Sequence record: NC_027994.1
Length of the DNA: 41,632 nucleotides
Origin: Escherichia phage K1H
Direction: 5' to 3' (one strand)
Made by a program: the position numbers and the translations under genes. This document shows positions 2,793-36,628 of this stretch, piece after piece. Under the pieces are notes generated by a model. That model searched no databases and was not told the origin of the DNA. It saw nothing but the letters and a program-made list of their open reading frames with translations. Numbering within the stretch: position 1 is the first letter of the stretch; the number at the start of each line of letters is the position of its first letter.

Positions 2793-3869
2793 ATGCTATT
2801 AACTTTAGCGCCACAGGGTTTATCTATGAGCTTACTTACATCACTAATCAGCCACCAAATATGGCTGCAACGCACCGCATCCGGTGAGGTGAAAGACCTC
2901 GCGCCGTTCATTAAGGAGATGCGGGACGAAATCAAACGGCAGGTGCTGCTATTCGGCGACGACGGTCGCAGCACTGCGCGACTGAATAAACTGTTACGTG
3001 ACCTTGAAGAAGTACTGACAGGACTTACTGGTGACTGGCAAACAAAGCTGGCAGAAGACCTCAAGGAACTGGCGGTGTATGAAGCTGAGTGGAACGTAAA
3101 GACCCTGACCGCCAACGTAGATGCGGAATTTGTTACGCCCACCGCCGAACAGGTGTGGGCCGCTGCTGAGTTTCAGCCATTATCATTGAGTGGCAAGCCA
3201 GTTGATTTCACTAAACTGATGTCAGGTTGGGGTGAAACGGAAGTAGCACGTCTTGTAACCAGCGTTAAGATGGGCTTTGTACAAGGTCAAACAACACGGC
3301 AGATTGTTAAGAATGTAGTAGGCGCCGGTGGGCTGGCTGACATCTCTGAGCGTAACGCCGCTACCGTCATCCGCACCGCGCTGTCTCACGTGTCCAACGA
3401 AGCCCGTAACGAGACGTACCGCCAGAACGACGACATCATCGAGAAGTACGAGTGGGTGTCAACGCTTGACAGCCGCACCAGTACGATTTGCAGGGTCAGA
3501 GACGGGATGACGTGGGAAATTGGTAAGGGGCCGATACCCCCAGCCCATCCGAACTGCCGGTCGTGCACGGCTCCGGTAATCAGTTCCGAGTTCGACTTCC
3601 TCGATAAAGGCGCAAAACGCGCGGCTAAAGGCGCGGAAGGTGGCACTCAGGTAAGCGCAGACACCACTTACTACGAGTTCCTTAAACAACAACCGGCGTG
3701 GTTTCAGGACCAGGCGCTCGGCCCGGTGCGAGGTAAGATTTTCCGTAACAGCGGTATATCGCCGGAAGAGTTTCGCGTAATATCTGTAGATGGTTTCGGG
3801 AATCCGCTCACGCTTAAGCAGATGGCGGAACTCGATAAACGTGTTGCTGATTATCTGAAAGGGTATTAA
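2793..3869 (+). CDS. Head morphogenesis protein (putative, Mu F / SPP1 gp7-like by position)
   Basis: 358-aa ORF between portal and capsid assembly genes; start uncertain (2793 or internal ATG near 2826). Confidence 0.55.
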   Translation: MLLTLAPQGLSMSLLTSLISHQIWLQRTASGEVKDLAPFIKEMRDEIKRQVLLFGDDGRSTARLNKLLRDLEEVLTGLTGDWQTKLAEDLKELAVYEAEWNVKTLTANVDAEFVTPTAEQVWAAAEFQPLSLSGKPVDFTKLMSGWGETEVARLVTSVKMGFVQGQTTRQIVKNVVGAGGLADISERNAATVIRTALSHVSNEARNETYRQNDDIIEKYEWVSTLDSRTSTICRVRDGMTWEIGKGPIPPAHPNCRSCTAPVISSEFDFLDKGAKRAAKGAEGGTQVSADTTYYEFLKQQPAWFQDQALGPVRGKIFRNSGISPEEFRVISVDGFGNPLTLKQMAELDKRVADYLKGY

Positions 3870-4330
3870 TGATGGGCTTTTTCAAAGTAACTGATGTACC
3901 GTCACGTCGCGTAGTCCAGTACGCCCGCGTGTCTGGCTCTGGTGAGAACGTGGTGTTTATTGATGATGAAAGTGTACTCGGTACACCCGAAGACGATATG
4001 CCGTTTGCAGATAAAACCGGTATTGCGTTACCCGCGGCGGGCATGCTTTATGAAATTCCGTATCTGGCGGATGCAGGTGACGTGTATTTCTCGGTGCAAC
4101 CGAAAGACACCGAGCTGGTCGACGGTAGCGCCACCATCACCGTCGAAGTTAAGGCGGGTAAAGCGCCGTGTGTACTGACCTGGTACAAAGACGGTAAGGA
4201 AGTGGTAAACGCCCCGGAAGAGGCTTTGTCTCTAACGGTTAATGCAGTTGGCGAATACTTTGTTAAAGTTACTGATGCCGATGGTGTAGAGGCCGTAAGC
4301 AAAGCGGCGAAGGTTACTAAGCCAGAATGA
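3869..4330 (+). CDS. Hypothetical structural protein
   Basis: 153-aa ORF with ATGA-type overlap to upstream gene; followed by bidirectional terminator. Confidence 0.5.
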   Translation: MMGFFKVTDVPSRRVVQYARVSGSGENVVFIDDESVLGTPEDDMPFADKTGIALPAAGMLYEIPYLADAGDVYFSVQPKDTELVDGSATITVEVKAGKAPCVLTWYKDGKEVVNAPEEALSLTVNAVGEYFVKVTDADGVEAVSKAAKVTKPE

Positions 4331-4331
4331 T

Positions 4332-4359
4332 AAAAGGCCCCTTTCGGGGCCTTATTTTT
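4332..4359. terminator. Bidirectional intrinsic terminator
   Basis: GGCCCC-TTTC-GGGGCC with T-run on + strand and A-run (T-run on - strand) on the other side. Confidence 0.6.
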
Positions 4360-4361
4360 CA

Positions 4362-4463
4362 TCAAAGTTCACCATTCCCGCTATCTGCGTCCTCGACCCC
4401 GCTAACAGCCCACACAAACAATCCTAAATTAACCAGTAACACAAATGAAATTGCTACCATCAT
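4362..4463 (-). CDS. Small hydrophobic peptide (33 aa, MMVAISFVLLVNLGLFVWAVSGVEDADSGNGEL)
   Basis: Internal ATG of track ORF 4362..4553; GGAGG Shine-Dalgarno 4-5 nt upstream; own promoter (TTGCAG-17-TACTAT) and terminator; single predicted TM helix. Confidence 0.4.
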   Translation of the reverse strand: MMVAISFVLLVNLGLFVWAVSGVEDADSGNGEL

Positions 4464-4489
4464 AACCACCTCCACTATACGTTTACTTA

Positions 4490-4518
4490 ATAGTACCCTA
4501 TTATGTTGGTGTCTGCAA
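4490..4518 (-). promoter_or_regulatory. Sigma70-like promoter, class 1 (TTGCAG-N17-TACTAT) with embedded dyad TAATAG-N4-CTATTA
   Basis: -35 at about 4513-4518 and -10 at about 4490-4495 (minus strand); spacer nearly identical to three other class-1 promoters. Confidence 0.5.
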
Positions 4519-4559
4519 ACTATTTGTTTACGTATTCCAGTTATTCCACTCAATTGTAA

Positions 4560-4584
4560 ATGTTGGAATAAGCTATTCGAATAG
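4560..4584. repeat. Half-site cluster GAATAA / CTATTC / GAATAG plus ATGTTGGAATAA direct-repeat copy 1
   Basis: ATGTTGGAATAA (4560-4571) recurs at 5343-5354; CTATTCGAATAG is a perfect 12-bp palindrome (4573-4584) abutting a -35 hexamer. Confidence 0.6.
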
Positions 4585-4613
4585 TTGACTTTTCACCAAA
4601 AATGTGCTAAGCT
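4585..4613 (+). promoter_or_regulatory. Sigma70-like promoter (TTGACT-N17-TAAGCT with TGn extended -10)
   Basis: TTGACT 4585-4590; TG at -15/-14; weak -10 TAAGCT 4608-4613. Confidence 0.4.
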
Positions 4614-4792
4614 CCACCTGAGCTTGTGAAGTATGAACAAGCGACCGCGGCGCGGGCAGGTAACGGAGCGGGACGTAAGTCCTGAGTGTAGTTACGCTGA
4701 CGCGTTCGGAAGGGCCATACTCTATTGCTTGTGTAAAAAGTAACTGGTTTACTGAGATTACGCCGTTTCTATGTTTAAATGATAAGGACTAG

Positions 4793-4820
4793 CGCCCCGC
4801 TTTAAGGCGGGGCTTTACTT
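4793..4820 (+). terminator. Intrinsic terminator
   Basis: GC-rich stem CCCCGC/GCGGGG followed by CTTTACTT; the same hairpin sequence recurs inverted at about 34970. Confidence 0.5.
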
Positions 4821-4837
4821 ATCGAGAAAGGGGAAAC

Positions 4838-5224
4838 ATGAATCTTAAAGCAACTGTCGTAGCGGGAGCATGTTTCATCATCCTGGCTTACGCACACGGC
4901 ATCTACCAGTATCGCAGCGGCTGGAACGGAGGCCGGGCAAATCTCGTTTCGCAGCAACAGCAGAAAGCACAGGCTGAGTTAGCTAAGAAAACACAACGGC
5001 AGCAGCAGGATGAGTCGAAGGCCGCAGCCGCTGATAACGAAGGCAAGACGAAATCAGAGGTAATCACCCGTGAAGTCGTTAAGTACATTAAAACGCCTGG
5101 CCGCAGCGTGTGCACTTTTGACCCTGAGCGCGTGCAGCTCAAGTCCCGCGCCGTCGCAAACGCCAATTCCATCCCCGGATACGACGATGATGCAGCCGCC
5201 GTGCAAACTGGCACTGCCAAGTAA
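4838..5224 (+). CDS. Rz: i-spanin (Rz-like)
   Basis: 128 aa; N-terminal TM segment, Q/A/K-rich coiled-coil periplasmic domain; contains overlapping +1-frame lipoprotein ORF; AAAGGGG SD upstream. Confidence 0.75.
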   Translation: MNLKATVVAGACFIILAYAHGIYQYRSGWNGGRANLVSQQQQKAQAELAKKTQRQQQDESKAAAADNEGKTKSEVITREVVKYIKTPGRSVCTFDPERVQLKSRAVANANSIPGYDDDAAAVQTGTAK

Positions 5225-5333
5225 CGACGCGGACGAGGATTTAGCTATTGACGTCCAGAACGCAGAATGTGTACGGCAACTGAGACTTAAAGTGTTCATG
5301 TTGCAGGATTACGTGAGGAATATTCTGGAATAG
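5070..5333 (+). CDS. Rz1: o-spanin (Rz1-like outer-membrane lipoprotein)
   Basis: +1 frame inside and beyond Rz; signal peptide with lipobox LSAC, proline-rich mature region. Confidence 0.7.
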   Translation: MKSLSTLKRLAAACALLTLSACSSSPAPSQTPIPSPDTTMMQPPCKLALPSNDADEDLAIDVQNAECVRQLRLKVFMLQDYVRNILE

Positions 5334-5342
5334 TTGCCTTGT

Positions 5343-5367
5343 ATGTTGGAATAATTTATTCTTGACA
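5343..5367. repeat. ATGTTGGAATAA direct-repeat copy 2 plus palindrome GAATAA-T-TTATTC and TTGACA
   Basis: Second copy of 12-mer; 13-bp palindrome 5349-5361; TTGACA 5362-5367 without a convincing -10; followed by hairpin AATCCGGG-TGGC-CCGGATT. Confidence 0.55.
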
Positions 5368-5412
5368 TGTAAATCCGGGTGGCCCGGATTCCAACGTCCA
5401 GGGGACATACTG

Positions 5413-6039
5413 ATGAGCGAAGAAGTGAAAGACGAAACTATCGAACAACAAGAGACTAAGACCACGTTTACCAAAGAAGAAGTTGACGCGCTGGTATCCG
5501 GTCTTAAAGCTAACAACGAGAAACTCTTGTCTGAAAAGAAAGCTGCCGCCGCTGCCGCGAAAGAAGCCGCAGATGCGAAGCTGAAAGCCGAACAGGAACG
5601 CGCAAAACAGAACGGCGAACTTGAGGCATTCGAGAAAACGTTACGCAGTCAGTATGAGCCAGTTCTCGCCGAGAAGGACGGTAAGATTAGCAAAATGGCT
5701 GAGCGTATCCTCGGCGCAGAACGTAAATCAGTTATCAGCCAGTTGTCTGGAATGTTGATTGATGAGAGCGCAGCGGATATCATCGCTATGATGGTCAAGA
5801 CCGAATTCGACGGCGATGACGTTGTGACCAAGTTCACAGGTGCAGATGGTAATGTCATCACCACCGACGCAGAGCAATTTAAAAAGTATCTGCGTGAGCA
5901 CAAAGCATTTTCGCATCTGATTAAAGCAGATGCAGCAACCGGCGGCGGGGCTTCCGGTAACAAAAATTCTACTGGCGGGGCCGGTGGTGCGGACGTAATC
6001 CAGCAAAAACTTAACGCCAAATACGGCAAACGAGGATAA
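5413..6039 (+). CDS. Scaffolding protein (putative)
   Basis: 208 aa from ATG 5413 with AGGGGA SD; acidic, alanine/lysine-rich helical protein directly upstream of major capsid gene. Track ORF starts earlier (5362). Confidence 0.65.
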   Translation: MSEEVKDETIEQQETKTTFTKEEVDALVSGLKANNEKLLSEKKAAAAAAKEAADAKLKAEQERAKQNGELEAFEKTLRSQYEPVLAEKDGKISKMAERILGAERKSVISQLSGMLIDESAADIIAMMVKTEFDGDDVVTKFTGADGNVITTDAEQFKKYLREHKAFSHLIKADAATGGGASGNKNSTGGAGGADVIQQKLNAKYGKRG

Positions 6040-7071: not shown

Positions 7072-7239
7072 GTGGAAATTAAATATGTACCAATGCCGAT
7101 TACCATCGAGCAGAAGCGAGAATATAACCGTCGGGGGTTCCGTGTAGTAGATGCTCGTTTCGCACCAGAAGGCACCGTGGTAGAATCGGCTAAAGAAGAG
7201 ACACCACGCCGCCAGCGTCGGGCTAAATCAGAGGAATAA
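7072..7239 (+). CDS. Small basic protein (55 aa, GTG start)
   Basis: AGGAGA SD 7 nt upstream of GTG; ORF ends 3 nt before next gene; below ORF-track size cutoff. Confidence 0.4.
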   Translation: MEIKYVPMPITIEQKREYNRRGFRVVDARFAPEGTVVESAKEETPRRQRRAKSEE

Positions 7240-7242
7240 TTT

Positions 7243-7755
7243 ATGCCGCTAATCGTGGAAGACGGGTCGATAGTACCTAACGCTGACAGTTACGTTAGTC
7301 TGGCCGACGCCCGCGCGTTAGCGGCTAATTACGGTCTTGTGTTGCCGGCAGACGATACCGCCGCAGAGGTGGCCCTGCGCAACGGCGCTACTTATGTTGG
7401 GCTTGCGGAACCTCAGATGTGCGGTCGACGTGCATCCGCCGAACAGTCTCTGGCGTACCCACGTACAGGAACAACACTAAACGGCTTCACCGTAGCGGAT
7501 AATGTTATCCCGTCGCAGTTAATCCGGGCACAAGTAATCGCTGCGGTTACGTATGGTGCGGGTACTGATGTTCGGGCTAACTCAGATGGGCGTTCCGTGC
7601 AGACTGAGCGTGTTGAGGGTGCTGTGACAGTGACATACTTCAACAACGGCAACAGCGGCGCCACAACCGCTATTACCGCTGCGGACGACGCATTACGCCC
7701 GTTACTGTGTGGCGGTCTTAACAACGGCTTCTCATTTAATGTGTACCGGGGTTAA
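7243..7755 (+). CDS. Head-tail connector/adaptor protein (putative)
   Basis: 170 aa; position after capsid; N-terminus resembles gp6-like connector proteins (weak recollection). Confidence 0.5.
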   Translation: MPLIVEDGSIVPNADSYVSLADARALAANYGLVLPADDTAAEVALRNGATYVGLAEPQMCGRRASAEQSLAYPRTGTTLNGFTVADNVIPSQLIRAQVIAAVTYGAGTDVRANSDGRSVQTERVEGAVTVTYFNNGNSGATTAITAADDALRPLLCGGLNNGFSFNVYRG

Positions 7756-10417: not shown

Positions 10418-10441
10418 AAGGCCCCGTTTGGGGCCTTTTTC
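10418..10441. terminator. Bidirectional intrinsic terminator
   Basis: ACTAAGGCCCC-GTTT-GGGGCCTTTTT between convergent genes; same hairpin with loop inverted at 23140-23163. Confidence 0.65.
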
Positions 10442-13000: not shown

Positions 13001-13028
13001 AATTGTTCCCTCAGTAAGTTACAGGTGA

Positions 13029-13057
13029 ATAGTACCCTATTATATTGGGGTGTGCAA
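13029..13057 (-). promoter_or_regulatory. Sigma70-like promoter, class 1 (TTGCAC-N17-TACTAT) with dyad GAATAG-TACC-CTATTA
   Basis: -35 at 13052-13057, -10 at 13029-13034 on minus strand; 34-bp segment nearly identical to 35234-35268. Confidence 0.55.
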
Positions 13058-23549: not shown

Positions 23550-24979
23550 TTCTTACCTCGTCTCTTCATGTAATTAAGCAACTCTTCCTGTACAGATTTC
23601 TTCTCGTCGGTTCGCGCGGCAACAACTTCGTCCAGCGTGTCTTTAGCAACGATGTGGTACAGGAACACCGGCCTCTCGTGTCCTGCCTGTTTCTGGCGGA
23701 CCGGGCCTATTCGCTCGACAACCTGCAAATAGTGTTCAAGATTCCAGCCTTGCGAGATGAACGCCAGATGGTGTCCGCCGTCCTGTAAATTCAAACCATG
23801 ACCGGCTGACGCAGGGTGGACGCACAAAATCTCGATTTCGCCGCGGTTCCATGCTTCCATCTGCTTATTACCCTTAGCACCTTTCGCGAATGCCTGCGCC
23901 TGCGGGAAACGTTTCAGGATACGCTCCAGTTCGTGCTTGAACTGATAGGCTACCAGTAGCGGAGCACCCTGTAACTCCTCAACAATTGACTCCAGCGCAT
24001 CCAGTTTCGTGTCGTGCACTTTCTCCCAGTCTTTGGTTGCTTCTCCGTCTGGCCCTGATACATACACAGCACCAGAAGCAATCTGCAAACACTTTGACGT
24101 CTTTGCCGCGGCGTTAGCCGCTTCAACTTCTCCGCTTTCCAGTTCCGCGAATAACTTTTCCTCCATATCGATGTACGCCTGACGCGCCTTCTTCGGCAGG
24201 TCGATTTCAACCGGTACAATAATCGGCGCTTCGCAACCAAACCACTCGGCGGCGTCAATCGTGAGACTAATGTCTTTCATCTTCTGATGAATCTCATTAT
24301 CCGCACCCGGTCGTGCGTGATACTCCCGCGCCATCGCGGATTTCCCTTTCTGTACCGAGTTAAACCAGCGGTCTGTGAATGCCGTGTACGAAGAACCAAG
24401 GCAACCAAGGCGCTCGCCAGCGTCGATAAACCAGTTCTGCCCCCACAAGTCCTTGAGGCCGTTCGGCGACGGTGTGCCTGTCAGGTTAATGAAACGCTTA
24501 ACCTTTCCGAACGCCACTTTGCTTAGCGCCTTAGCCCGTTTGCTTCCTCCAGAACGGCTACGGAAAGATTTCAGCTTCGTGCTCTCATCAGCAACGATAA
24601 CCGTAAAAGGCCAGTCGTCTTTGCCGTAGTAGTCAATCAGCCACTCGATAACTTCGTAGTTTGTGCACACCACGTTAGCATCTGACTCCAGCGCCGCGAT
24701 ACGGCGCTTCTCTGAACCGGTTGCGTCTACGACACTCAGACAGGGGAAGTTCCAACGTGCCTGTTCCGCGGGCCACGTACCTGACGCAACACGTAAAGGA
24801 GCCAGAATTAACACTCGGTCGTCGTCATTAAGTTGCCCATTACGGAACAGCCGATTGAGAACCCACAACGTTGACCCCGACTTACCGCTGCCCATGCTCG
24901 CCCAGATATTGCAGCGATGGTGCCGCAGCATGAACGAAGTCATGAGCTTCTGGTATTCGCGCCTTTGAAACTTACTCAT
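23546..24979 (-). CDS. SNF2/DEAD-like superfamily II helicase
   Basis: 477 aa; Walker A-like SMGSGKS, DExx box VADEST, C-terminal helicase motifs. Confidence 0.75.
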   Translation of the reverse strand: MSKFQRREYQKLMTSFMLRHHRCNIWASMGSGKSGSTLWVLNRLFRNGQLNDDDRVLILAPLRVASGTWPAEQARWNFPCLSVVDATGSEKRRIAALESDANVVCTNYEVIEWLIDYYGKDDWPFTVIVADESTKLKSFRSRSGGSKRAKALSKVAFGKVKRFINLTGTPSPNGLKDLWGQNWFIDAGERLGCLGSSYTAFTDRWFNSVQKGKSAMAREYHARPGADNEIHQKMKDISLTIDAAEWFGCEAPIIVPVEIDLPKKARQAYIDMEEKLFAELESGEVEAANAAAKTSKCLQIASGAVYVSGPDGEATKDWEKVHDTKLDALESIVEELQGAPLLVAYQFKHELERILKRFPQAQAFAKGAKGNKQMEAWNRGEIEILCVHPASAGHGLNLQDGGHHLAFISQGWNLEHYLQVVERIGPVRQKQAGHERPVFLYHIVAKDTLDEVVAARTDEKKSVQEELLNYMKRRGKK

Positions 24980-25796
24980 TTACCGCCCCCATAAACGCCT
25001 TTATAAATTCGGCGGCTACTTGCGGGACGATGGCATTGCCGTAACCGCGCAATCGTCCCACTCTGGCGGGTATCCCATTAGCCAGCGGGAATGCGCCGGG
25101 TTCAACCGGCCGGAACTTTCCATCACGGCATCCGAGCCAGTCAGCATCTGACCAGAAGCCGTGGTGCGGGTTGGTTGACTCGCTTTCAATCCCTGCTCTG
25201 TTGAGTAGTCCAGCCTGTCGAATGTTCTGTCCCTCCCGTCCGTGCGAATCACTGTCTCTCCGCTCCCTCTGAAGTCGTTCGCTGTCGGTGTAGGCCAGTT
25301 CGTGCGCGCCAAAGAAGAGTCGTTCTCTTTTGTGCGGTGCGCCGACGCTACAAGCTGGGAGTACAGCAAACCCGACGGCGTAGTCTTCTCCTTCCAGGTG
25401 AGCTTGTAAATCGCACATCCACGATTTTGCAATTGCTGCCGCAACCTGCTCCCCAAAGATGACTGGAGGGCGGCACTCGCTGATGAGGTCGAGGAAGACC
25501 GGCGCGAGGTGTCTCGGGTCGAACTGTCCGAGTTGCTTTCCCGCCGCGCTAAACGGTTGGCAAGGCGGGCTTCCCGTCCAGAGAGGCGCATCTTCCGGAA
25601 CTCCCGCAAGTCTGAGCGCGAGAGGCCAGCCGCCGATACCCGCGAAAAAATGACACTGGGTGAACCCGTCAAGGTCTTCTGGCTTAACTTCGGTAATGCT
25701 TCTTTCATCTACAACTCCAAAAGGTATGTGACCCTGTTTTATCAACTCACGCAGCCACGCGGCTGCGCCTTTATCCCATTCATTGTAATAGTTCAT
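24972..25796 (-). CDS. DNA (cytosine-5)-methyltransferase (orphan)
   Basis: 274 aa; motif I FAGIGG and motif [13 protein letters not shown] (catalytic Pro-Cys); no adjacent restriction endonuclease. Confidence 0.7.
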
Positions 25797-25984
25797 TTCG
25801 CCACCAGAACTAACTCTTTACGCCCGAACGCCGTAACGTTACCGGTTACATCTTCGATAACCAGTTTACCGTTCGACTCGACGAACACCGTATCAACGGC
25901 AACAGGTTGACGTGTCTTAACGTTGAAAATCATGTCACCCGGTACGATGTCACGTGCTGGTTTGCGGTCATATTCGTGTTTCAT
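25793..25984 (-). CDS. Hypothetical protein
   Basis: 63 aa; first gene downstream of class-2 promoter at about 26018-26046. Confidence 0.45.
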   Translation of the reverse strand: MKHEYDRKPARDIVPGDMIFNVKTRQPVAVDTVFVESNGKLVIEDVTGNVTAFGRKELVLVAK

Positions 25985-26014
25985 TTCTCAATTCCTTATA
26001 TTGTTGGTGTAGGA

Positions 26015-26314
26015 CTAACTATAATAGCTAGCTATTAGGTCGTCAACCTGTTTAAACGAACCAACGACAAAAACATTCGCACCACGTTTACGCATCCGCT
26101 CATGTTCCCGTAGCTGGTGCGGGTCTGGCTTCGTGTTCTCGTCTTTCTTAACCTCGACGAACCAGACTATGCCGCCGGGGAGAATTACCAGCAGGTCTGG
26201 GGCGCCGGAACGCCCCTCGTAGGAGAGTTTGCGAACGAGGCCGCCAAGGGCCTCGAATCGGTCTTTTGCGTATTTCTGTACGCGGCCCTCTTTAGTCATG
26301 AGCGTAGATCCCAA
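26015..26314 (-). CDS. VRR-NUC domain nuclease (putative)
   Basis: PD-(D/E)XK-like ...PDLLVILPGG...VEVKK; likely true start is the ATG 5 codons in (ATGA overlap with upstream small ORF). Confidence 0.55.
   Translation of the reverse strand: MGSTLMTKEGRVQKYAKDRFEALGGLVRKLSYEGRSGAPDLLVILPGGIVWFVEVKKDENTKPDPHQLREHERMRKRGANVFVVGSFKQVDDLIASYYS
26018..26046 (-). promoter_or_regulatory. Sigma70-like promoter, class 2 (TTGACG-N17-TATAGT) with perfect 16-bp palindrome TAATAGCTAGCTATTA
   Basis: Minus-strand -35 at about 26041-26046 and -10 at about 26018-26023; overlaps 3' end of VRR-NUC gene. Confidence 0.55.
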
Positions 26315-26447
26315 GTAATGAAAGCCCCGCCTAGAACGGCGACACCGGCAAACTTAAAGAACAGGCCATAACAGAACATCGCGGCTATTCCTGCACCGAG
26401 TAGCAGTGCGAGCATGGTTACTATCACCCGAAATACGAACATTGTCA
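26296..26447 (-). CDS. Small membrane protein (about 49 aa, two hydrophobic segments)
   Basis: ATG preceded by GGGAGGGG SD; stop overlaps VRR-NUC ATG; coordinates approximate (+/-2). Confidence 0.35.
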
Positions 26448-26651
26448 TAATACGCACCCCTCCCGTTTGGTATGCTCAATTCCGCAGCGCGGGCAGATTC
26501 GACAGTCTTCTTCATAAAACCAGTAAATTTTCATTCCAGCACCCACAGATAAATTGCGATGAACATGCCCAATATGGCAACCATCATGACGTATTGACCC
26601 TCGTGACAGTAGACACCGGCAGCAAATCCCGCCAGTACCGCGATAATCAGT

Positions 26652-28832
26652 TTACTTGGCATAACGCTTCATCTCCGCGCCTTCTGCTACAAGAGGGAAC
26701 CCCTCGGCCCACTCTGGTAATTCGCACATCAATCGTTCCAGTTCTGCGACATTGTATTCTGGTAAATCTGGTGTCTCGCAGATAATCTCATCGTGAACAT
26801 GAAGCACAATCGGGTAGCCGTTTGCTTCGACGTTCAGCAGTGCATTAGCCAACAAATCACGGCACAGCGCCTGAGTGCAGTTTTCCACGAGTTTACCGGA
26901 ATATGTGTACTGGAAGCCCCACTGACGGGTTAACTGGTTTTCGCCCTGGTACTTGATGCGCACGTTGGTAGACACCTTCCCGTCTTCGTCTGTCTCTTTC
27001 GACACGCTTAGCCCAACACCCGGATAAGACATAACGCGGCCCGACGGCAACGTCATCCGCAACCACCAACCGGCGACTTTGTTGCCGTTGTTGTCCGTTT
27101 CTACGTTGCGCGAAAACTTAACTCCCCGCGGCCCTGCGGTGAACTCTTTGCCCGGATTGCGGATAGCTGCCATAGCTGCGTCTTCAATATCCCGCCAGAA
27201 AGCTACTGTTTCCGGGTGTGACTCACGCCACATACGCTTGATAGCGTCGCAGGTACGCCACACTTTCTTATCAAGAATATAAGATGGTCGGTCATCATTT
27301 TCACCTGGACGTGGTGGTCGCTTGGCTTCCTGAATACGCGCCCACTCATATCCACGTGCGGTAGCAGCCCAGATGTGGTCGGGGAAAGTCCCGTCCATTG
27401 TTTTTGTCATATCAACAAGGTCAAGGCCGAGGTTCTTGGCGAACTGTACGAATGCGCCGACACCCCCCGCGTAGCCAAGTCCAAGTTCGCATGCCTTACC
27501 AATCTGGCGTAAGTCTTTACGTTCTTTCTTAATGTAATCCGGCTCCATGCCGAACATCTTGCCTGCGGTTACGCAGTAAATATCCAGCCCGGCACGGAAC
27601 GTATCAAGCGCGGTTTCTTCGCCAGCCAGCCACGCCAAACCGCGGCCTTCAACGTTCGAGTAGTCGGCGACGACAAACTTATGTCCGGCTTCCGGGATAA
27701 TGCAGCTGCGAACCGTAGATGCCGTTAGCTTGGCTACATCAAAACGGCGATGTGCTCGGCCCTTAAGTAATGCTGAAATACCTTTATCCAGTTCATCATC
27801 GTGATAGTACCCACGCGCCAGGTTCTGCGGCTGGAAGCCTTTACCCGCAAATCGTAACGTACGTTTAGCTCCACCATACTGGATGCAACCGCGACGGCGG
27901 TCGTCAGACGAGCGGCCTAACAGCAGCGGGTTATATTTCGTTGACGCAGTGGATGCCGCCCCGAGGCGCATTTCTATAATCGTGCGGGCGTCGTCCGGTA
28001 AATCATCGTCAGCAAGCAGGTCGTTAAGCGTTGACTTCTGCGCGTTGTGGATGCGATGCGCAGGCGCCAGTTCACGCAGAATCGGCAGGAAGTCCTTACC
28101 TGTAAGCGAGCCGCCGTATTTACGTTGGGCTTCTTCCTGTAACTGTGCCTTGTGTTTCTCCACAGCTTCAATTGCGGCTTCCGCCAGCGCAACGTCGACC
28201 TTAAACCCGCGGTCGTTAATTAACTGGTCCAGTTCCAGTACACGGTCTTCGAACTCGGAGTTACCCCAACGCGGCAACTTATGGAACACTTCACGCATCG
28301 CGGTGATGTCGCTAACGGCGTACTTGATGAACAGCGCCCACTCATCCGGGTGCGTTTCAGCAGTGTAGCGGCGAATTTTGTAGTTCTTCGGCGTCGGTTT
28401 AGAGAAACGCTGAATAAGCGCTTTGCCTCGTTTGTCTTTCGCGTTGTCTGCAGACACGCCAAGCACTTCGCACAATGCGTCGAGTGAACCCGGCAGCGCG
28501 TGACGAAACGCCCAAATCATCGTATCAATGGTGTTGCTTACGGGAATATCAAAACCCCAGCAGTGCTTCATGATGAGTCTGTCGAACATTGAGCCGTTGT
28601 GCCACACCATCTTAATACGGCTGTTTGGTTTCACCAGACGGCGTAACGCGCGGTGCAAATCACCCGGCATGTCGCTGCCGTTGGTGCAATCCCATACCTG
28701 CACAGGCTCGTCGTCAAAAGCATATGTGCAGATTAGAACTTCGGTGGTTGGATGTTCGGCGTAAGCGTAGGAGCCGACTTTCTTCAAATCGGCTTCGGAG
28801 AATGTTTCAAAGTCTAAGAACAGGTAACTCAT
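26652..28832 (-). CDS. DNA polymerase I-like (family A) with 3'-5' exonuclease domain
   Basis: 726 aa; N-terminal DFETFSE exonuclease motif; size and position in replication module. Confidence 0.85.
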   Translation of the reverse strand: MSYLFLDFETFSEADLKKVGSYAYAEHPTTEVLICTYAFDDEPVQVWDCTNGSDMPGDLHRALRRLVKPNSRIKMVWHNGSMFDRLIMKHCWGFDIPVSNTIDTMIWAFRHALPGSLDALCEVLGVSADNAKDKRGKALIQRFSKPTPKNYKIRRYTAETHPDEWALFIKYAVSDITAMREVFHKLPRWGNSEFEDRVLELDQLINDRGFKVDVALAEAAIEAVEKHKAQLQEEAQRKYGGSLTGKDFLPILRELAPAHRIHNAQKSTLNDLLADDDLPDDARTIIEMRLGAASTASTKYNPLLLGRSSDDRRRGCIQYGGAKRTLRFAGKGFQPQNLARGYYHDDELDKGISALLKGRAHRRFDVAKLTASTVRSCIIPEAGHKFVVADYSNVEGRGLAWLAGEETALDTFRAGLDIYCVTAGKMFGMEPDYIKKERKDLRQIGKACELGLGYAGGVGAFVQFAKNLGLDLVDMTKTMDGTFPDHIWAATARGYEWARIQEAKRPPRPGENDDRPSYILDKKVWRTCDAIKRMWRESHPETVAFWRDIEDAAMAAIRNPGKEFTAGPRGVKFSRNVETDNNGNKVAGWWLRMTLPSGRVMSYPGVGLSVSKETDEDGKVSTNVRIKYQGENQLTRQWGFQYTYSGKLVENCTQALCRDLLANALLNVEANGYPIVLHVHDEIICETPDLPEYNVAELERLMCELPEWAEGFPLVAEGAEMKRYAK

Positions 28833-28845
28833 TATTTTTGACCCT

Positions 28846-28872
28846 TAGTAAAAAGGCCCAATGAAGGGCCTT
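28846..28872 (-). terminator. Intrinsic terminator/attenuator between SSB-like gene and DNA polymerase
   Basis: GGCCC-N6-GGGCC followed by TTTTT on minus strand. Confidence 0.45.
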
Positions 28873-28891
28873 AGTTAAATTGATTCAGATA

Positions 28892-29518
28892 TTAGCGACG
28901 ACGACGCTCGCGGCGCGGTGCTTCATCTTCTTCGTCGTCTTCCAGGTCATTTACGCTGGCAGCGACTTTAGAACCGCCAAACGCTTTGCCTTCGCCAATG
29001 TATTTAATCGCCAGCAGGTTAACGCCGAGGACTTTATATTTCTGACTGAACCAGATTTCAACGCTTACGTTAGCGACGCAGCCGCTGTAAACCTGTTCAC
29101 CTTCAATCTGTTCGCCGTCTACATTGAAGTCCTGTTCTACCTGAGTCTCGCCTTTTTTAGAGGTTACAATCAGTGGCTGTTTCTGTGCCTTCGCCTTGAA
29201 GTAGAAGCCTTCCGGGAAGTCTTCAAACGGATTGTCGCGCTCGGCAATGTCTTTAATCGCACATTTATCCATGTGCTTACCTTCGCCGTAGTTGGACTTC
29301 ATCCACTTCTCAGCGGCAGCTGCGCCCAACGCTTCTTCAACCACAGCGTAAACGGTGTCGTAGAGCGCGTCGATTTGTGCGTGGTCAGACGGCAGGATGA
29401 TAGTCGCGCTGTACTGGCCTTTAGTGATTGAGCCATCATCGTTTTCACGGTCTTTTTCGCGTTCGAATACGTTAACCCATGCAGTGTTTACTTTACGCAG
29501 ATTCAGTTTAATACCCAT
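28892..29518 (-). CDS. Single-stranded DNA-binding protein-like (DUF2815-like, tentative)
   Basis: 208 aa; acidic C-terminal tail (DLEDDEEDE); position between nuclease and polymerase. Confidence 0.45.
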   Translation of the reverse strand: MGIKLNLRKVNTAWVNVFEREKDRENDDGSITKGQYSATIILPSDHAQIDALYDTVYAVVEEALGAAAAEKWMKSNYGEGKHMDKCAIKDIAERDNPFEDFPEGFYFKAKAQKQPLIVTSKKGETQVEQDFNVDGEQIEGEQVYSGCVANVSVEIWFSQKYKVLGVNLLAIKYIGEGKAFGGSKVAASVNDLEDDEEDEAPRRERRRR

Positions 29519-29571
29519 CGTGATTTCTCGCTTTTCAGTTTACTCCGGGAACTGCCCGGCCAGTGATTAGA

Positions 29572-29600
29572 ACTATAATAGCTAACTATTCAGGTGTCAA
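29572..29600 (-). promoter_or_regulatory. Sigma70-like promoter, class 2 (TTGACA-N17-TATAGT) with dyad TAATAG-CTAA-CTATTC
   Basis: Minus-strand -35 at 29595-29600, -10 at 29572-29577. Confidence 0.55.
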
Positions 29601-29604
29601 CACT

Positions 29605-30870
29605 TTATTCCGAATCTTCTTCACTAACCTGATTCCACTCAGGACGTTTGTCGTCTGCCGTTGCGACACATGGTGCGCCTGGCTTACGGGTAATAAACGG
29701 CTCAAGCGCTGCCATCTCATCCGCCGAAAGAACTTTTGCTGCCTCCGTAGGGGTCATCAATACCTCTTTTTTGAGAATGTCGCCGTGTGACACTTCAATC
29801 GCATCGGCATCTTTCCACGCACGATTACCCTGGCGGCCTTCTACCAGTTTGTACCCTGGCACTTTCTTACCGGAATGCAATGCGGCGGACATCGCTTTCT
29901 CAACCTTGTCGATGTGCTGGCGCAACAGCGGCAACTTCTCATACTCAACTACGAGTTGCTCCGTCGTCAGTTCCAGCACAAAGTCGTCTTCAAGTTCTTC
30001 CGCCAGTACAGAATTAACCGTCTTTGTACGCGCGGCACACTGTTCAGAGAACCGGCACCACTGGCAACCATCTACTGACGGCTTAAAGTCTGACGCTTTC
30101 AGGTTCTTCTTACCGCGGAAATATGCATCAAGTGCTAACAGTGCTCGTTTTTGTGCGAACTTAGCGAACAGTTCCAGGCCTTCAACCGAGATATCCCACT
30201 CCGACGCACCCCCAGCGTACGGCTGGAAGATGACCAGACGAACAGTTGTTATGTTATAACGTCTCTTGAGTCGGCGATAGACACCGAGCGCGTAAAGCAT
30301 AAGCTGCTTGTTTTCTTTCGCTTCGACGCGATGCCGTCCTGTTTTCAGGTCACCAATAATGAGCATGTGCTCGTCGGTGTTTGCCAGTTCCTGTACGGCA
30401 ACAAGGTCAGCAGTTCCGAACGTTTCAACGCCTTCGTAGCCTGGGTGCAACACCTCAGTAAGATTGACGCGCATTTCCAGCTTAGCGTAAGTCGCTACAT
30501 CAATAATCGCTTTGCAGTAGTCGGTGTACTTGCGCACCTGCTCAATCATGTCCGTCGTAATCAGTACCGCGCCTTTCATTGGGCTGATTAGCGCCTTAAT
30601 CTGGCCTTTACCCTCATCCAGCACATAAGCGCCAACTTCACGCTCTAATGGCAGAGCAGTGCCTTTGATGTACTGGTTAAGGTGCATCTCCGCTATGGTG
30701 TGGCATGCAGTCCCTGTAACGGCGGCTTTACCAGACGTGTTGGGAATATCTTTCTCACAGGCCAGTGACGCACTGCACGCCAGCCACTTTTTAGCGCCAG
30801 ACGGCGACAGTAAGGCGTGCACATCGTTATTGCCGCCGCGTTCCTTTAAAATCATACCCTGCTCTCCCAC
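29605..30870 (-). CDS. PD-(D/E)XK family nuclease (DUF2800-like, Cas4/RecB-type with C-terminal Cys cluster)
   Basis: 421 aa; N-terminal LSPSGAKKWLAC..., C-terminal CQWCRFSEQC cluster. Confidence 0.6.
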   Translation of the reverse strand: MGEQGMILKERGGNNDVHALLSPSGAKKWLACSASLACEKDIPNTSGKAAVTGTACHTIAEMHLNQYIKGTALPLEREVGAYVLDEGKGQIKALISPMKGAVLITTDMIEQVRKYTDYCKAIIDVATYAKLEMRVNLTEVLHPGYEGVETFGTADLVAVQELANTDEHMLIIGDLKTGRHRVEAKENKQLMLYALGVYRRLKRRYNITTVRLVIFQPYAGGASEWDISVEGLELFAKFAQKRALLALDAYFRGKKNLKASDFKPSVDGCQWCRFSEQCAARTKTVNSVLAEELEDDFVLELTTEQLVVEYEKLPLLRQHIDKVEKAMSAALHSGKKVPGYKLVEGRQGNRAWKDADAIEVSHGDILKKEVLMTPTEAAKVLSADEMAALEPFITRKPGAPCVATADDKRPEWNQVSEEDSE

Positions 30871-31124
30871 TGGTCAATTAAATGTCGTGTCTTATGGTCG
30901 CAGTGCATAGCCCAGCCATACATCGACTCGAAGACGTAAAAGTCCGGTTTGGCGAAAGTCGTGCGCTTAATATGTGACACGTGGCGGCCTATGTCTTTAG
31001 GCCGTGGCACTTTGCCTAAGTACGCCATATCTTCCATCTGGTGCGAGCCAGACGGCGCACGTAACAGCCATAGCGCCTCTGTGCTATCCCTCCTGTCTAC
31101 GGCGCGGTAGAGTTGGTAAATCAT
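30852..31124 (-). CDS. Hypothetical protein
   Basis: 90 aa; GAGGG SD; hairpin upstream. Confidence 0.45.
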   Translation of the reverse strand: MIYQLYRAVDRRDSTEALWLLRAPSGSHQMEDMAYLGKVPRPKDIGRHVSHIKRTTFAKPDFYVFESMYGWAMHCDHKTRHLIDQWESRV

Positions 31125-31167
31125 AATCCCGACCCTCAGTTAAAGCGGCCCGAAGGCCGCGGGATAA

Positions 31168-31686
31168 TTATTCTTCTTCGAAATACTTGTTCTTGATTGC
31201 CGTCAGGCGTTCCAGGTATTCGGCAAGGTCTTCGTCTTTAATCGCGGCAATCTTCATCTTCTTACCGGTGAACTCTTCCAGCAGTTCATCGGAATCATCG
31301 CACGCGGCGTCGCTCGGACCTTCGTTAATTGCATCGTCGATAGCCTGAATCTGGTCACGCAGAGACTGGTAATCTACTTCTTCCTTCTCTTCCGGTTCTG
31401 GCGTCGGTTCCTCTACTTTAGATTTACGCGGCTTGCGTTTCGGCTTCTCTTCTTCTGCTGGTTTAGTGTCGACGATGTCTTCACCTTCAACCGGGATTTC
31501 TTTCGCCTTCTCGACTTCTTCAAGTGCTTTAGCCAGTTCTTTTTTAACTGTCTCTACCCCAGTTACCGCGACGTCAACAGTCAATTCACCTACAGATTTG
31601 CTAGTCGGTTGTTTCACACTGTTTGCAGCAATCAGTTCGTGGGCGACTACGAAACGTTCCAGTAATACCAAGAATTTCTCTAACAT
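31168..31686 (-). CDS. Highly acidic early protein (function unknown)
   Basis: 172 aa, very rich in Glu/Asp with short lysine-rich patch; first gene of leftward operon from class-2 promoter; GAGGAG SD. Confidence 0.5.
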   Translation of the reverse strand: MLEKFLVLLERFVVAHELIAANSVKQPTSKSVGELTVDVAVTGVETVKKELAKALEEVEKAKEIPVEGEDIVDTKPAEEEKPKRKPRKSKVEEPTPEPEEKEEVDYQSLRDQIQAIDDAINEGPSDAACDDSDELLEEFTGKKMKIAAIKDEDLAEYLERLTAIKNKYFEEE

Positions 31687-31717
31687 TTGTTTCTCTCCTC
31701 TCGTTTGGTATGTGTTA

Positions 31718-31747
31718 ACTATAATAGCGAACTATTCACGTTGTCAA
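31718..31747 (-). promoter_or_regulatory. Sigma70-like promoter, class 2 (TTGACA-N18-TATAGT) with dyad TAATAG-CGAA-CTATTC
   Basis: Minus-strand -35 at 31742-31747, -10 at 31718-31723. Confidence 0.55.
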
Positions 31748-31751
31748 TGGG

Positions 31752-31782
31752 CTTTTCTAAAATAATTAATATGGTACTATTC
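31752..31782 (+). promoter_or_regulatory. Weak plus-strand promoter (-10 TACTAT, poor -35) with dyad TAATAT-GGTA-CTATTC
   Basis: TACTAT at 31775-31780; overlaps the divergent class-2 promoter; AAGGAG SD before ATG 31812. Confidence 0.4.
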
Positions 31783-31811
31783 ACATATCAACTGACTAAG
31801 GAGTAATTGAC

Positions 31812-32027
31812 ATGCAACCATCTGAACTAGGCATCCGTGTAGAACAGCGCCGTAAAGAACTCGGCATTTCCCAACGCCGTCTGGCTGTCCTGGCCGGTGT
31901 TTCCCAGGGCGCGATTAACCAGCTGGCACTCGGTGTAACTAAGGACGTCCGCCCAGCGACGCTGTTTAAACTGGCGGAAGTGCTAGAGGTAGACGCCAAG
32001 TGGCTGGCGTTCGGTGAAGGGGCTTAA
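31812..32027 (+). CDS. XRE-family (Cro/CI-type) HTH transcriptional regulator
   Basis: 71 aa; RRKELGISQRRLAVLAGVSQGAINQ... typical HTH_XRE helix-turn-helix. Confidence 0.7.
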   Translation: MQPSELGIRVEQRRKELGISQRRLAVLAGVSQGAINQLALGVTKDVRPATLFKLAEVLEVDAKWLAFGEGA

Positions 32028-34312: not shown

Positions 34313-34370
34313 GTTGTATTTCCTTCAGCAAGTAATTTGGCCTCGGCGTTCACCGCGTCGGGGCTTTCTT

Positions 34371-34691
34371 TTATTCCAGGTCGTGGGAGATATTACCCTC
34401 GGGCACCAACACTTTTCCAATACTTCTCGCTTTCTCTGTAATAGGCGTCGCTCTTGTTGCCCGATAAAACTTTCCTTTATTAAGAATCTCACCATGTCGC
34501 TCGAGCACATCTAAAGCATGTTTGATCGGGTTTACACCGTAATTATCCAACCGGTATCTCCGAAGCCCGTCTACCGTAAAAGCGCCGTTCGCTTCGGTCA
34601 GTCTGCGTGCACACATTAATATGTGTTTCTGGAATTTAGTTAGCATCTTTAACGTTCTCCTTAATCCACGCCTCCACAGTAGCGCGGTCAA
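34371..34691 (-). CDS. Hypothetical protein
   Basis: 106-aa track ORF overlapping upstream gene by 56 nt; true start probably an internal ATG. Confidence 0.4.
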   Translation of the reverse strand: MTALLWRRGLRRTLKMLTKFQKHILMCARRLTEANGAFTVDGLRRYRLDNYGVNPIKHALDVLERHGEILNKGKFYRATRATPITEKARSIGKVLVPEGNISHDLE

Positions 34692-34815
34692 AGGTACCTG
34701 GCTGACGGTAGCCGTTAATAACCCGGCAACACTCAGGGAACTTACCCGACCGCAGCCAGCGATTAAGCGTCATAGGAGAAACTCCGATTAAGTCTGCTAC
34801 TTCTTTCTGTGTCAT
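34636..34815 (-). CDS. AlpA/excisionase-family HTH DNA-binding protein
   Basis: 59 aa from ATG 34815 (AGAGGG SD); MTQKEVADLIGVSPMTLNRWLRSGKFP... matches AlpA-like pattern. Confidence 0.55.
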   Translation of the reverse strand: MTQKEVADLIGVSPMTLNRWLRSGKFPECCRVINGYRQPGTFDRATVEAWIKENVKDAN

Positions 34816-34877: not shown

Positions 34878-34905
34878 TTGACAAAATAAAATGTAGCTGT
34901 AAAAT
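34878..34905 (+). promoter_or_regulatory. Strong sigma70-like promoter (TTGACA-N16-TAAAAT)
   Basis: Consensus -35, near-consensus -10; faces a 390-nt region lacking any ATG. Confidence 0.55.
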
Positions 34906-35236
34906 CAATGTATCGAAGGACCTTAATTCAGAATTACTTAGAAACATCATTCTTAAGTCTCGGGTACTTAAAGCCCCGCCCTAAAGCGGGGCGCTAAACA
35001 GTACTCTTGGTAACGTTAGTATCTAAGTTTCCTCAAAGTAACAGCAAGTAGCAAGAAAGCCTCCGTCTATTTAAATTTTACCCTCCTTCATAAGCTACTG
35101 ATAATTAAAAGTTTCTATAGTTGCCGTAAGCGAGGTAGAGAGTACTTCACTCCGCTGGGGTGGGCTAACGCCCACCCACTGCGTTGCGTACTCCTTTAAG
35201 AAACGAAAGAATCACAACGGCAACGTAACTATTCTC

Positions 35237-35267
35237 TTGCACACCCCAACATAATAGGATACTATTC
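35237..35267 (+). promoter_or_regulatory. Sigma70-like promoter, class 1 (TTGCAC-N17-TACTAT) with dyad TAATAG-GATA-CTATTC
   Basis: -35 35237-35242, -10 35260-35265; about 30 nt upstream of first early-right gene. Confidence 0.55.
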
Positions 35268-35299
35268 ACTTATCGGAACGAGACAGAGGAGTGAGGGTT

Positions 35300-36600: not shown

Positions 36601-36628
36601 ATTTACACAAGCGAGAGGGGAGACAGAG

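Follow-up and report, generated by a model that had tools for sequence, protein, structure and literature searches.

Repeats that bracket the spanin genes of Escherichia phage K1H are probably operator arms in the control region of a structural-gene operon

Why do the two spanin genes of Escherichia phage K1H lie among head genes, apart from the holin and endolysin genes, and why is the segment that carries them bracketed by two copies of the same 12-bp word? These questions concern a 41,632-nucleotide stretch of sequence record NC_027994.1 (the whole stretch is hereafter the window), which is a Kagunavirus (Guernseyvirinae) genome with 99.5% identity to fKuEco01 and UTI89UKE1 over 4533-5450. 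A preliminary description of this DNA had offered two readings of the repeats: a duplicated late promoter/operator, or the scar of a cassette insertion. Our analysis suggests that the 12-mers are probably the identical left arms of two operators, here called O1 and O2, which belong to the region that controls the second structural-gene operon of Guernseyvirinae phages. The elements of this region are the following.

4334-4353, unstranded: bidirectional intrinsic terminator, 8-bp GC-rich stem with T-runs on both strands
4533-4547, unstranded: half-site pair TATTCC-N3-TATTCC, 17 bp upstream of O1, 0.987 conserved
4558-4586, unstranded: putative operator O1, imperfect palindrome of about 29 bp, centre 4572, core GGAATA-AGC-TATTC at 4565-4578
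4560-4571, plus strand: 12-mer copy 1, exact match, left arm of O1
4585-4613, plus strand: predicted promoter P1, TTGACT (4585-4590), 17-nt spacer, extended -10 element TGc-TAAGCT (4605-4613)
5317-5332, unstranded: half-site pair GGAATA-N4-GGAATA, within the final codons of Rz1, 15 bp upstream of O2
5334-5362, plus strand: candidate promoter P2, TTGCCT (5334-5339), 17-nt spacer, TATTCT (5357-5362)
5343-5354, plus strand: 12-mer copy 2, exact match, left arm of O2, inside the P2 spacer
5343-5368, unstranded: putative operator O2, imperfect palindrome of about 26 bp, centre 5355, ATGTtgGAATAA-T-TTATTCttgACAT, core 5348-5361
5372-5390, plus strand: conserved hairpin AAUCCGGG-UGG-CCCGGAUU at the predicted 5' end of the P2 transcript (about +3)

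The repeats themselves are as first described. The word ATGTTGGAATAA occurs exactly at 4560-4571 and 5343-5354, copy 1 being followed by GCTATTCGAATAG and TTGACT (4585-4590) and copy 2 by TTTATTC and TTGACA (5362-5367), and it is found nowhere else in the window when one mismatch is allowed. Among random genomes generated with a first-order Markov model, 93% contained at least one exact 12-mer direct pair within 1 kb (mean 2.6), and the window itself holds about nine independent pairs of this kind. The low chance expectation for ATGTTGGAATAA holds for a word chosen beforehand, not for 'some 12-mer'. Thus, the repeat is statistically unremarkable, and its significance rests on context and conservation.

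We assessed conservation in 47 loci of relatives fetched through the Rz protein and in 37 fetched through the Hoc-like protein, the latter being a choice independent of the spanins. Nearly all Kagunavirus loci contained both 12-mers, altered at no more than one or two positions. Every Hoc-selected locus that was long enough carried Rz downstream together with the upstream motif copy or its core, and nearly all had the downstream copy too. The 12-mer or its variant, where detected, stood about 278 nt before the Rz ATG, with the distance from the Hoc-like gene to Rz ranging from 343 to 1116 nt. A search with 4530-4840 retrieved 188 phage records, 177 of them covering at least 80% of the query at 95-99% identity, and the wider segment 4300-5450 matched 192 phage records, all from Guernseyvirinae siphoviruses of Escherichia, Salmonella, Shigella or Raoultella. 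Only in Kagunavirus are ATGTT, the first five bases of the 12-mer, and the second TTGACA found; in Jersey-like Salmonella phages and in Hafnia phages the core GGAATA-N3-TATTC alone is kept. When conservation was scored over 46 distinct sequences, the palindromic cores and half-site pairs reached 0.99-1.00, versus 0.85-0.86 for the Rz/Rz1 coding sequence. The core of O2 scored 0.998, and the half-site pair at the end of Rz1 scored 0.996, versus 0.85 for the rest of that gene.

What is conserved is symmetric. O1 reads AAATGTTGGAATAA-G-CTATTCGAATAGTT, its right arm reaching the -35 element of P1 and its centre lying near -48 relative to the P1 start. O2 can be written as ATGTTGGAATAA-T-TTATTCTTGACAT; it overlaps the P2 spacer and -10 element, and TTGACA (5362-5367) is its right outer arm. 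The corresponding palindrome is GTAAGTGGAATAA-T-TTATTCTTGTTAC in Jersey-like phages (outer arms GTAA...TTAC) and TACAAGAATAA-T-TTATTCTTATA in the Hafnia phage TS33 (outer arms TACAAG...CTTATA), so that the outer arms vary by genus yet the symmetry is kept. Upstream of P1, TS33 carries a half-site pair and a palindrome separated by the same 17-bp gap, in inverted orientation. With up to three mismatches, the palindrome pattern TGGAATAANTTATTCC matched only O1, O2 and 7232-7247 in the 41.6-kb window, and none of 100 shuffles reached this. O1 and O2 thus combine dyad symmetry, conservation above that of their neighbours and recurrence at related promoters. The dyad symmetry, the half-site arrays, the constraint exceeding that of coding sequence and the symmetric divergence point to operators for a co-evolving dimeric DNA-binding protein, and we infer that a protein binds at both sites. 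The third match, here O3, is the near-palindrome AGGAATAATTTATGCC at 7232-7247, which has 12 bases in common with O2; it overlaps the ribosome-binding site and ATG of a connector gene, open reading frame (ORF) 7243, and only genomes that carry this head-module allele have it.

The strong bidirectional terminator at 4334-4353 follows the Hoc-like gene and presumably closes the upstream operon (terminase, portal, MuF and Hoc-like genes), which makes new promoters necessary downstream. P1 has the hexamers and 17-bp spacer of a sigma70 promoter and is conserved in three genera (TAGACT-17-TGt-TACGCT in Jersey-like phages, TTTACT-17-TGa-TAACCT in TS33) as well as in a second copy described below; its start site is expected at 4620 ± 1. 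A previous prediction in phage fBC-Eco01 lists it as 'host promoter 1' (PMC9825357). For candidate P2, with an expected start at about 5369, the hexamers are invariant in Kagunavirus and Jersey-like loci and read TTGCTT-17-TATTCT in TS33, the -35 element being 1.00 conserved. The hairpin at 5372-5390 is the main stem of a -15.5 kcal/mol fold of 5369-5412, after which come the ribosome-binding site AGGGGA and the scaffold ATG at 5413. Both this hairpin and H1, the hairpin that follows P1, carry compensatory changes in Jersey-like loci (CACCGGG/CCCGGUG for 5372-5390).

O2, including copy 2, fills the P2 spacer and -10 element, so the two 12-mers differ in position relative to their promoters. 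The proposal of a duplicated late promoter/operator stands in modified form. Each copy is conserved and located in a promoter region, with palindromic cores at 0.99-1.00, but the geometry is not that supposed in the preliminary description; copy 1 lies upstream of the P1 -35 element and copy 2 inside the spacer of a different promoter. The second TTGACA, noted in the preliminary description, has no usable -10 element and is TTGTTA in Jersey-like phages.

At the P1 start we also observed that the Jersey-like loci (L038-L047) repeat their -10 hexamer TACGCT 3 nt downstream, at about the position of transcription start and of the H1 5' strand, where Kagunavirus has TGAGCT/GAGCTT. The TACGCT repeat of the Jersey-like phages, or GAGCTT at 4620-4625, could be a -10-like element for sigma-dependent pausing.

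The same comparisons bear on the insertion scar, that is, on the idea that a spanin cassette integrated here and left the 12-mers behind as duplicated target sites or as the footprint of recombination. The block is indeed flanked by mosaic junctions on both sides, and in Vibrio phage 1.131.O, whose capsid is 62% identical, MuF is followed by 86 nt and the scaffold gene, with no Hoc-like gene, RNA or spanins; this arrangement implies that the Hoc/RNA/spanin block was added in the lineage, only at great depth. However, the Vibrio junction carries no such motif, and no empty site or single-copy relative was present among the 47 spanin-selected loci, the 37 Hoc-selected loci or the 188 GenBank records; the synteny comparison suggested in the preliminary description found no relative that lacks the segment between the repeats. 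The homology borders fall at about 4533 and 5413, which puts the repeats 27 and 59 bp within the constant block. Moreover, the repeats are palindrome halves, accompanied by extra half-sites and overlapping promoter elements, and in other genera the repeat is reduced to its symmetric core, as operators are. With no empty site and with borders outside the repeats, a recent insertion with target duplication is refuted, and we consider the scar reading extremely improbable.

Could the GGAATA/TATTC elements instead be sites for a host factor, or serve the host RNA polymerase as A/T-rich UP-like or curvature elements? P1, with its near-consensus -35 and extended -10 elements, needs no activator, the sites are A/T-rich and upstream of the -35 element, and no phage regulator has been assigned. 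However, O2 overlaps the -10 element rather than lying upstream, its outer arms differ by genus while remaining symmetric, as co-evolution with a phage-encoded dimer predicts, and the second promoter copy in relatives works without the array. We regard a host factor as unlikely.

An explanation at the RNA level is that O2 is read through from P1 and that its AU-rich hairpin is a processing or stability signal, or a translational operator. The segment 5338-5372 folds as a long AU-rich hairpin (-5.7 kcal/mol, z = -1.9), base pairing would likewise account for the symmetric changes that the arms show between genera, and O3 overlaps a ribosome-binding site and start codon. Nevertheless, the hairpin is very weak, O3 is tied to one head-module allele only, and the direct half-site pairs have no RNA-structure rationale. 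O1, in turn, lies upstream of P1 and just past a strong terminator, where plus-strand transcription is improbable. This explanation seems to us very unlikely.

Several points weigh against the operator reading. The exact 12/12 identity of the operator arms is within chance expectation. P2 agrees with the consensus at only 8 of 12 positions, a consensus scan did not detect it, and the conservation of its TATTCT could be due to the operator alone. The distance between O1 and P1 is not fixed: in TS33, where the array is inverted, about 56 bp separate the palindrome from the -35 element downstream of it, which argues against a simple contact mechanism at P1. The spacing between O1 and O2 among relatives is 780-784 bp, and 876 bp in one, which leaves phased looping unsupported. 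The transcriptome of the Kagunavirus K1B4 (PMC12645636) reports coarse gene classes only, without per-gene or start-site values. Finally, no regulator is linked to O1 and O2, for which we have only the following list of candidates.

31812-32027, plus strand: XRE protein
34636-34815, minus strand: HTH_17 protein
37507-37800: 97-aa protein
A NinH-like protein

The consensus sequences of the host transcription factors ArgR, DeoR and RcsAB do not fit in spacing or positions and are leads only; GAGGAATATTCTGG (5315-5328) may resemble an RcsAB box, which would favor a host factor.

The operators of lambda and P22 (OR/OL) and those of the LacI type are palindromes that overlap promoter cores. The putative operators described here resemble them in having a dyad of about 25 bp, one site over the spacer and -10 element and several sites per genome, and in that the half-sites shift symmetrically between related phages. 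They differ in having a direct half-site pair 15-17 bp from each palindrome and in that O1 touches the P1 core at its edge only; their operator role is predicted from sequence.

Ahead of Rz, the preliminary description had omitted the promoter, a structured RNA and a terminator-like hairpin, which together fill 4585-4822. The P1-to-Rz interval (4614-4837, 224 nt) is 95-99% identical in most relatives and contains the following features.

4620-4728, plus strand: structured 5' domain of the leader, 108 nt, 130.8 bits with covariance model R1
4633-4743, plus strand: 36-aa ORF, 'hypothetical protein' in relatives' records, broken in relatives
4729-4790, plus strand: less conserved 3' part of the leader, differing between the late copy, the second copy and Jersey-like phages
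4794-4822, plus strand: terminator-like hairpin GCCCCGC-UUUAAG-GCGGGGC (4794-4813) with the interrupted U-tract CUUUACUUAU

The 5' domain folds into two hairpins, namely H1, which is short (4622-4642), and a long irregular one (about 4645-4709) with a CCG/CGG base and then helices P2, P3 and P4; a conserved single-stranded tail, AAGGGCC...CUAUUG, follows the long hairpin. R1, a covariance model made from eight leader variants, scored the second copies in relatives at 90-104 bits and the Jersey-type leaders at 34-38 bits (E value about 1e-8). In a model-based alignment of 28 distinct sequences, standard pairs filled 93.2% of cells, versus 26-47% when the partners were slid; both sides had changed in 15 of 25 pairs, versus 2-3 with slid partners; and the covariation score was 0.431, versus at most 0.079, although all these figures are inflated because the alignment was fitted to the structure. 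One pair of helix P2 was seen as C-G, U-A and A-U. RNAalifold on that alignment and single-sequence folds of two divergent members gave the same architecture. A MAFFT alignment of the two leader types was not structure-aware and was replaced by the model-based one. Sequence and comparison thus identify the leader as a structured RNA, not a gene.

Consistent with this, we rejected 4633-4743 as a small protein gene. A one-base deletion cuts the frame to 9 codons in three loci (L013, L021 and L026), it is reduced to 17 codons in L004, its ATG is lost in L011, and it is absent from the Jersey-type leader; no PHROG or Pfam match was found for it. The 36-aa ORF is probably not a gene.

The hairpin at 4794 (-17.2 kcal/mol, z = -2.5) carries compensatory changes in two loci (L007 and L045) and is annotated as a terminator in the fBC-Eco01 record. 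Its tail is UUUACUUAU in Kagunavirus, which passed a terminator scan, and UUAGCGUAU in Jersey-like phages, a poor U-tract that makes the hairpin at best a partial terminator. Three further pairings were rejected: a riboswitch-like pairing of helix P4 with the terminator stem is not conserved, P4 covarying freely while the terminator is constant; the long-range GCGGCG/CGCCGU pairing of the minimum-free-energy fold of the full leader has no 3' partner in the second copies, and the local P2 helix covaries; and the complementarity of 4663-4679 with 5138-5154 was judged to be chance.

In the whole window, Rfam 15 gave no match at gathering score, with chance-level matches only at E <= 10 in 4330-5420, and ARAGORN found no transfer RNA or transfer-messenger RNA. 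No homologue of the leader was present in 5,426 E. coli genomes, and a pattern scan followed by a model search of 185,579 bacterial and archaeal species genomes returned two phage-like fragments only. R1 likewise had no match in the leaders of Hafnia phage TS33 or Vibrio phage 1.131.O. TS33 (L134) nevertheless has a P1-to-Rz leader of similar length at 3045-3285, with a 5' hairpin and several strong stems and no detected similarity; it may be an analogous element that has been replaced.

A second occurrence of the P1 core promoter, again joined to the 5' RNA domain, is found in fKuEco01 and in 16 metagenomic loci. The second copies include the following.

L118 (fKuEco01): 34270-34458
L069: 11804-11960, minus strand
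L106: 12236-12390, minus strand
14 further loci (L119-L133)

The second copy, which has the same orientation, is about 10-11.6 kb distant and heads a small-gene operon, presumed to be early, that begins just past the HTH_17 gene. The second copies fall into three sequence types with extra compensatory changes and carry neither the GGAATA arrays nor a hairpin of the 4794 type; downstream of the copy in fKuEco01 come another hairpin and, after it, a 'PHIRE-type' promoter. The window has a single RNA copy. At the position of the second copy it has a different promoter and leader, and only a reversed hairpin at 34965-35004 (minus strand). This is a near-exact reversed copy of the leader terminator hairpin (TAGCGCCCCGCTTTAGGGCGGGGCTTTAAGTA), located between the HTH_17 gene and the presumed-early small genes, downstream of a TTGACA-16-TAAAAT promoter (34878-34905).

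The late copy of one locus (L015) is identical to the second copy of another (L128), which suggests gene conversion. This observation favors a further explanation, that the conserved blocks are homology patches for modular exchange of the head module and of a variable 'moron' slot, with the repeats incidental. The homology breaks also lie just outside the regulatory regions, at about 4533, where the TATTCC pair starts, and at 5413, the scaffold ATG, where two alleles meet. However, homology patches need no dyad, no half-site arrays at fixed spacing and no overlap with promoter hexamers, and the conservation spans genera that do not exchange flanks. We hold this explanation to be distinctly unlikely as the whole account, and the homology-patch and regulatory roles are not mutually exclusive.

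Returning to the genes that the repeats bracket, the identity and position of the spanins were as first reported.

4838-5224, plus strand: Rz, i-spanin, 128 aa, phrog_2536 at 1.1e-56 over its full length
5070-5333, plus strand: Rz1, o-spanin, 87 aa, GTG start, phrog_5672 at 7e-30 and phrog_1267 at 6e-20
37876-38915, plus strand: holin, holin and endolysin cassette, holins 37876-38449, endolysin 38427-38915 (Pfam Phage_lysozyme)

The N-terminus of Rz (MNLKATVVAGACFIILAYA) is a transmembrane segment, and Rz1 has the lipobox LSAC (...LLTLSAC) and a proline-rich mature part. Rz1 has the overlapped architecture, starting inside Rz in the +1 frame and ending 109 nt past the Rz end. A transmembrane i-spanin of the expected family and an o-spanin with a lipobox and a +1-frame overlap together make a two-component spanin. 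PHROG families confirm both spanins as well as the two holins and the endolysin. The spanin pair lies between head genes, flanked by the Hoc-like and scaffold genes, a position identical in the loci and records examined. The separation from holin and endolysin, put at about 7.5 kb, is 7555 bp from the endolysin end to Rz on the circular map (41632 - 38915 + 4838). In phage T4, the spanin genes pseT.3 and pseT.2 are likewise unlinked to the holin and endolysin genes. The likeness is that spanins are encoded apart from the holin-endolysin pair; unlike in T4, they lie here in the head-gene region, heading a structural-gene operon, and their position is fixed across the subfamily. The separate position is annotated in many records and mentioned in the Golestan and fBC-Eco01 papers (PMC9825357 for the latter), so the unusual spanin location is a fixed, previously annotated trait of the subfamily.

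As far as sequence comparison can establish it, the elements of the control region exist, their constraint exceeds that of the spanin genes, and their arrangement is ancestral to the subfamily. Our model for how they might work is as follows. We are most confident that P1 and P2 would start the spanin-scaffold-capsid operon after the 4334 terminator. A dimeric, probably phage-encoded regulator would recognise the GGAATA half-sites and time the operon through O1 and O2, acting as a repressor at P2 because O2 covers its spacer and -10 element. P1 would be a strong sigma70 promoter whose transcripts are partly stopped at the 4794 hairpin, so that spanin expression would occur by read-through, and the 5' RNA domain of these transcripts would affect their fate at the hairpin and beyond. 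The location of the spanins would simply reflect their place at the head of this operon, comparable to that of the lysis genes in the late operon of lambda. We are least confident that the 5' domain acts on RNA polymerase in the manner of the put RNAs discussed below; it may instead be a 5' stabiliser, a processing signal of the RNase III type or part of a trans-acting RNA of about 200 nt.

In the late unit of lambda, the promoter pR' is followed by the 194-nt 6S leader RNA, the terminator tR', the genes S-R-Rz/Rz1 and the head genes, under the antiterminator Q. The locus described here has a similar order, with a sigma70 promoter, a leader of about 200 nt, a terminator-like hairpin and then lysis and morphogenesis genes, and it also has a candidate -10-like hexamer at the transcript start (GAGCTT at 4620-4625; the second TACGCT in Jersey-like phages). 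Unlike in lambda, only the spanins are here, with holins and endolysin 7.5 kb upstream, and the putative site O1 lies at about -48, upstream of the -35 element, not between the hexamers as in the Q site. We know of no conserved, covarying RNA structure that matters in lambda 6S RNA, whereas the present leader has one. The mechanism of Q antitermination is summarised in PMC9371919. Among 15 window proteins scanned, a part of the proteome, none matched the Q family. The HTH_17 protein was rejected as an antiterminator of the AlpA type: it is 59 aa long and has no counterpart of the N-terminal, ring-forming part described for AlpA.

The putL and putR RNAs of phage HK022 act in cis and render RNA polymerase resistant to termination (PMC9378689). 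Like put, the leader domain is a structured RNA beginning at about +1 to +3 of its promoter, with two stem-loops that contain internal loops and bulges, and in many genomes two related copies stand behind two promoters, each followed by terminator-like hairpins and long operons. Paired leader RNAs also recall nutL and nutR of lambda. Unlike put, it spans about 108 nt rather than about 70 nt and belongs to a virulent siphovirus rather than a lambdoid phage, the window has one copy, and factor-independent antitermination through the zinc-binding domain of the RNA polymerase beta' subunit, as for put, would apply here by analogy. R1, which is not a put model, had no match (E <= 1) in HK022 24000-32000, a segment chosen to cover the immunity region. 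At the sequence level membership in put is contradicted, and membership in either a lambda-type or a put system is not established. That 4620-4728 belongs to a new class of cis-acting RNAs that modify the host RNA polymerase, analogous to put without sequence similarity, is possible but doubtful. Under this hypothesis, transcripts would pass the 4794 hairpin and later terminators, and O1 and O2 would gate only the copy that heads the spanin operon.

A second family of regulatory repeats in these genomes is the 'PHIRE' repeat tgAATAGTa-ccTATTat-T, whose copies were called phage (RNA polymerase) promoters in fBC-Eco01 (PMC9825357). The motif TGAATAGTAnCCTATTAT / TGAATAGTAnCCTATTATnT has seven copies in the window.

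PHIRE copies: 4487-4506, 13026-13045, 29573-29592, 31719-31738, 31764-31783, 35249-35268 and 36582-36601

Four copies carry TTGCAc-17-TACTAT on the opposite strand and two carry TTGACA-17/18-TATAGT, and there is no RNA polymerase among the fKuEco01 annotations. The copies appear better read as sigma70 promoters with an AATAG-N4-CTATT operator. Like the PHIRE repeat, the 12-mer region has a GAATA half-site and a TATGTTGG tail, and both are conserved regulatory repeats; the spacing differs, being GAATA-N6-TATTA in PHIRE and GAATA-N3-TATTC in the 12-mer region. PHIRE promoters face replication genes, presumed-early small genes and the moron slot. Two PHIRE copies flank the gene of the XRE protein (31812-32027, plus strand), whose partner is more likely this repeat family than O1/O2.

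The moron slot and the scaffold gene adjoin the control region on its two sides.

4354-4532, minus strand: variable 'moron' slot, 343-1116 nt of differing content in relatives
4518-4490, minus strand: sigma70-type promoter in the moron slot, TTGCAG (4518-4513), 17-nt spacer, TACTAT (4495-4490)
5413-6039, plus strand: head scaffolding protein, phrog_206, the first gene 3' of P2

The moron-slot promoter bears the AATAG-N4-CTATT operator, that is, the PHIRE motif at 4487-4506. From this promoter of its own runs an ORF for a 33-aa hydrophobic membrane peptide, MMVAISFVLLVNLGLFVWAVSGVEDADSGNGEL (4463-4362, minus strand), which has the strong ribosome-binding site GGAGGTGG and terminates at the bidirectional terminator 4334-4353; an Rfam scan at E <= 10 around that terminator gave weak matches to terminator-type models only. 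In relatives the slot holds other small genes; annotations under two of the matches name a methylase and a sliding clamp. On the other side, the scaffold and major capsid genes exist in Kagunavirus as two unrelated alleles that switch exactly at the scaffold ATG (5413), and the capsid type of this window is present at 95% identity or more in only about 17 GenBank records.

Comparison of the window ORFs with the annotated fKuEco01 genome gave the overall gene order. A first rightward series runs from presumed-early small genes (at about 35.3 kb) through the two holins and endolysin and more small genes to terS, and continues with terL (1-1251), the portal, the MuF-like head protein and the Hoc-like protein (3869-4330). 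The second rightward operon begins at the spanin control region and comprises Rz/Rz1, scaffold, capsid, connectors and tail tube, as far as the bidirectional terminator 10418-10437. Next come a leftward block and the tail genes, and finally the leftward replication genes. Among the presumed-early small genes, 35712-35785 is a perfect tandem repeat of three 24-bp units (ATCCGTATAACTGACCGCAGGCTT).

In the literature searched and the records examined, we found no earlier description of O1/O2 or P2, of the structured RNA or its second copy, or of the 36-codon ORF as non-coding; P1 (PMC9825357) and the 4794 hairpin had already been predicted in fBC-Eco01. The DNA elements are ordinary in kind, namely promoters with palindromic operators, and the repeats would thus be ordinary cis-regulatory elements and not the mark of recent gene movement. 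For phages that are widely isolated for therapy and whose regulation is essentially unstudied, our results offer a map of a control region (O1, P1, leader, hairpin, O2 and P2). They also correct an annotation, in that the 'hypothetical protein' between the Hoc-like gene and the spanins is most likely a segment of structured RNA. This strongly covarying RNA, with its two paralogous copies, is a candidate for a new family of phage RNAs, and its function is directly testable in E. coli. If the put-like reading were true, RNA-mediated processive antitermination would extend beyond the HK022-type lambdoids to widespread virulent phages used in therapy.

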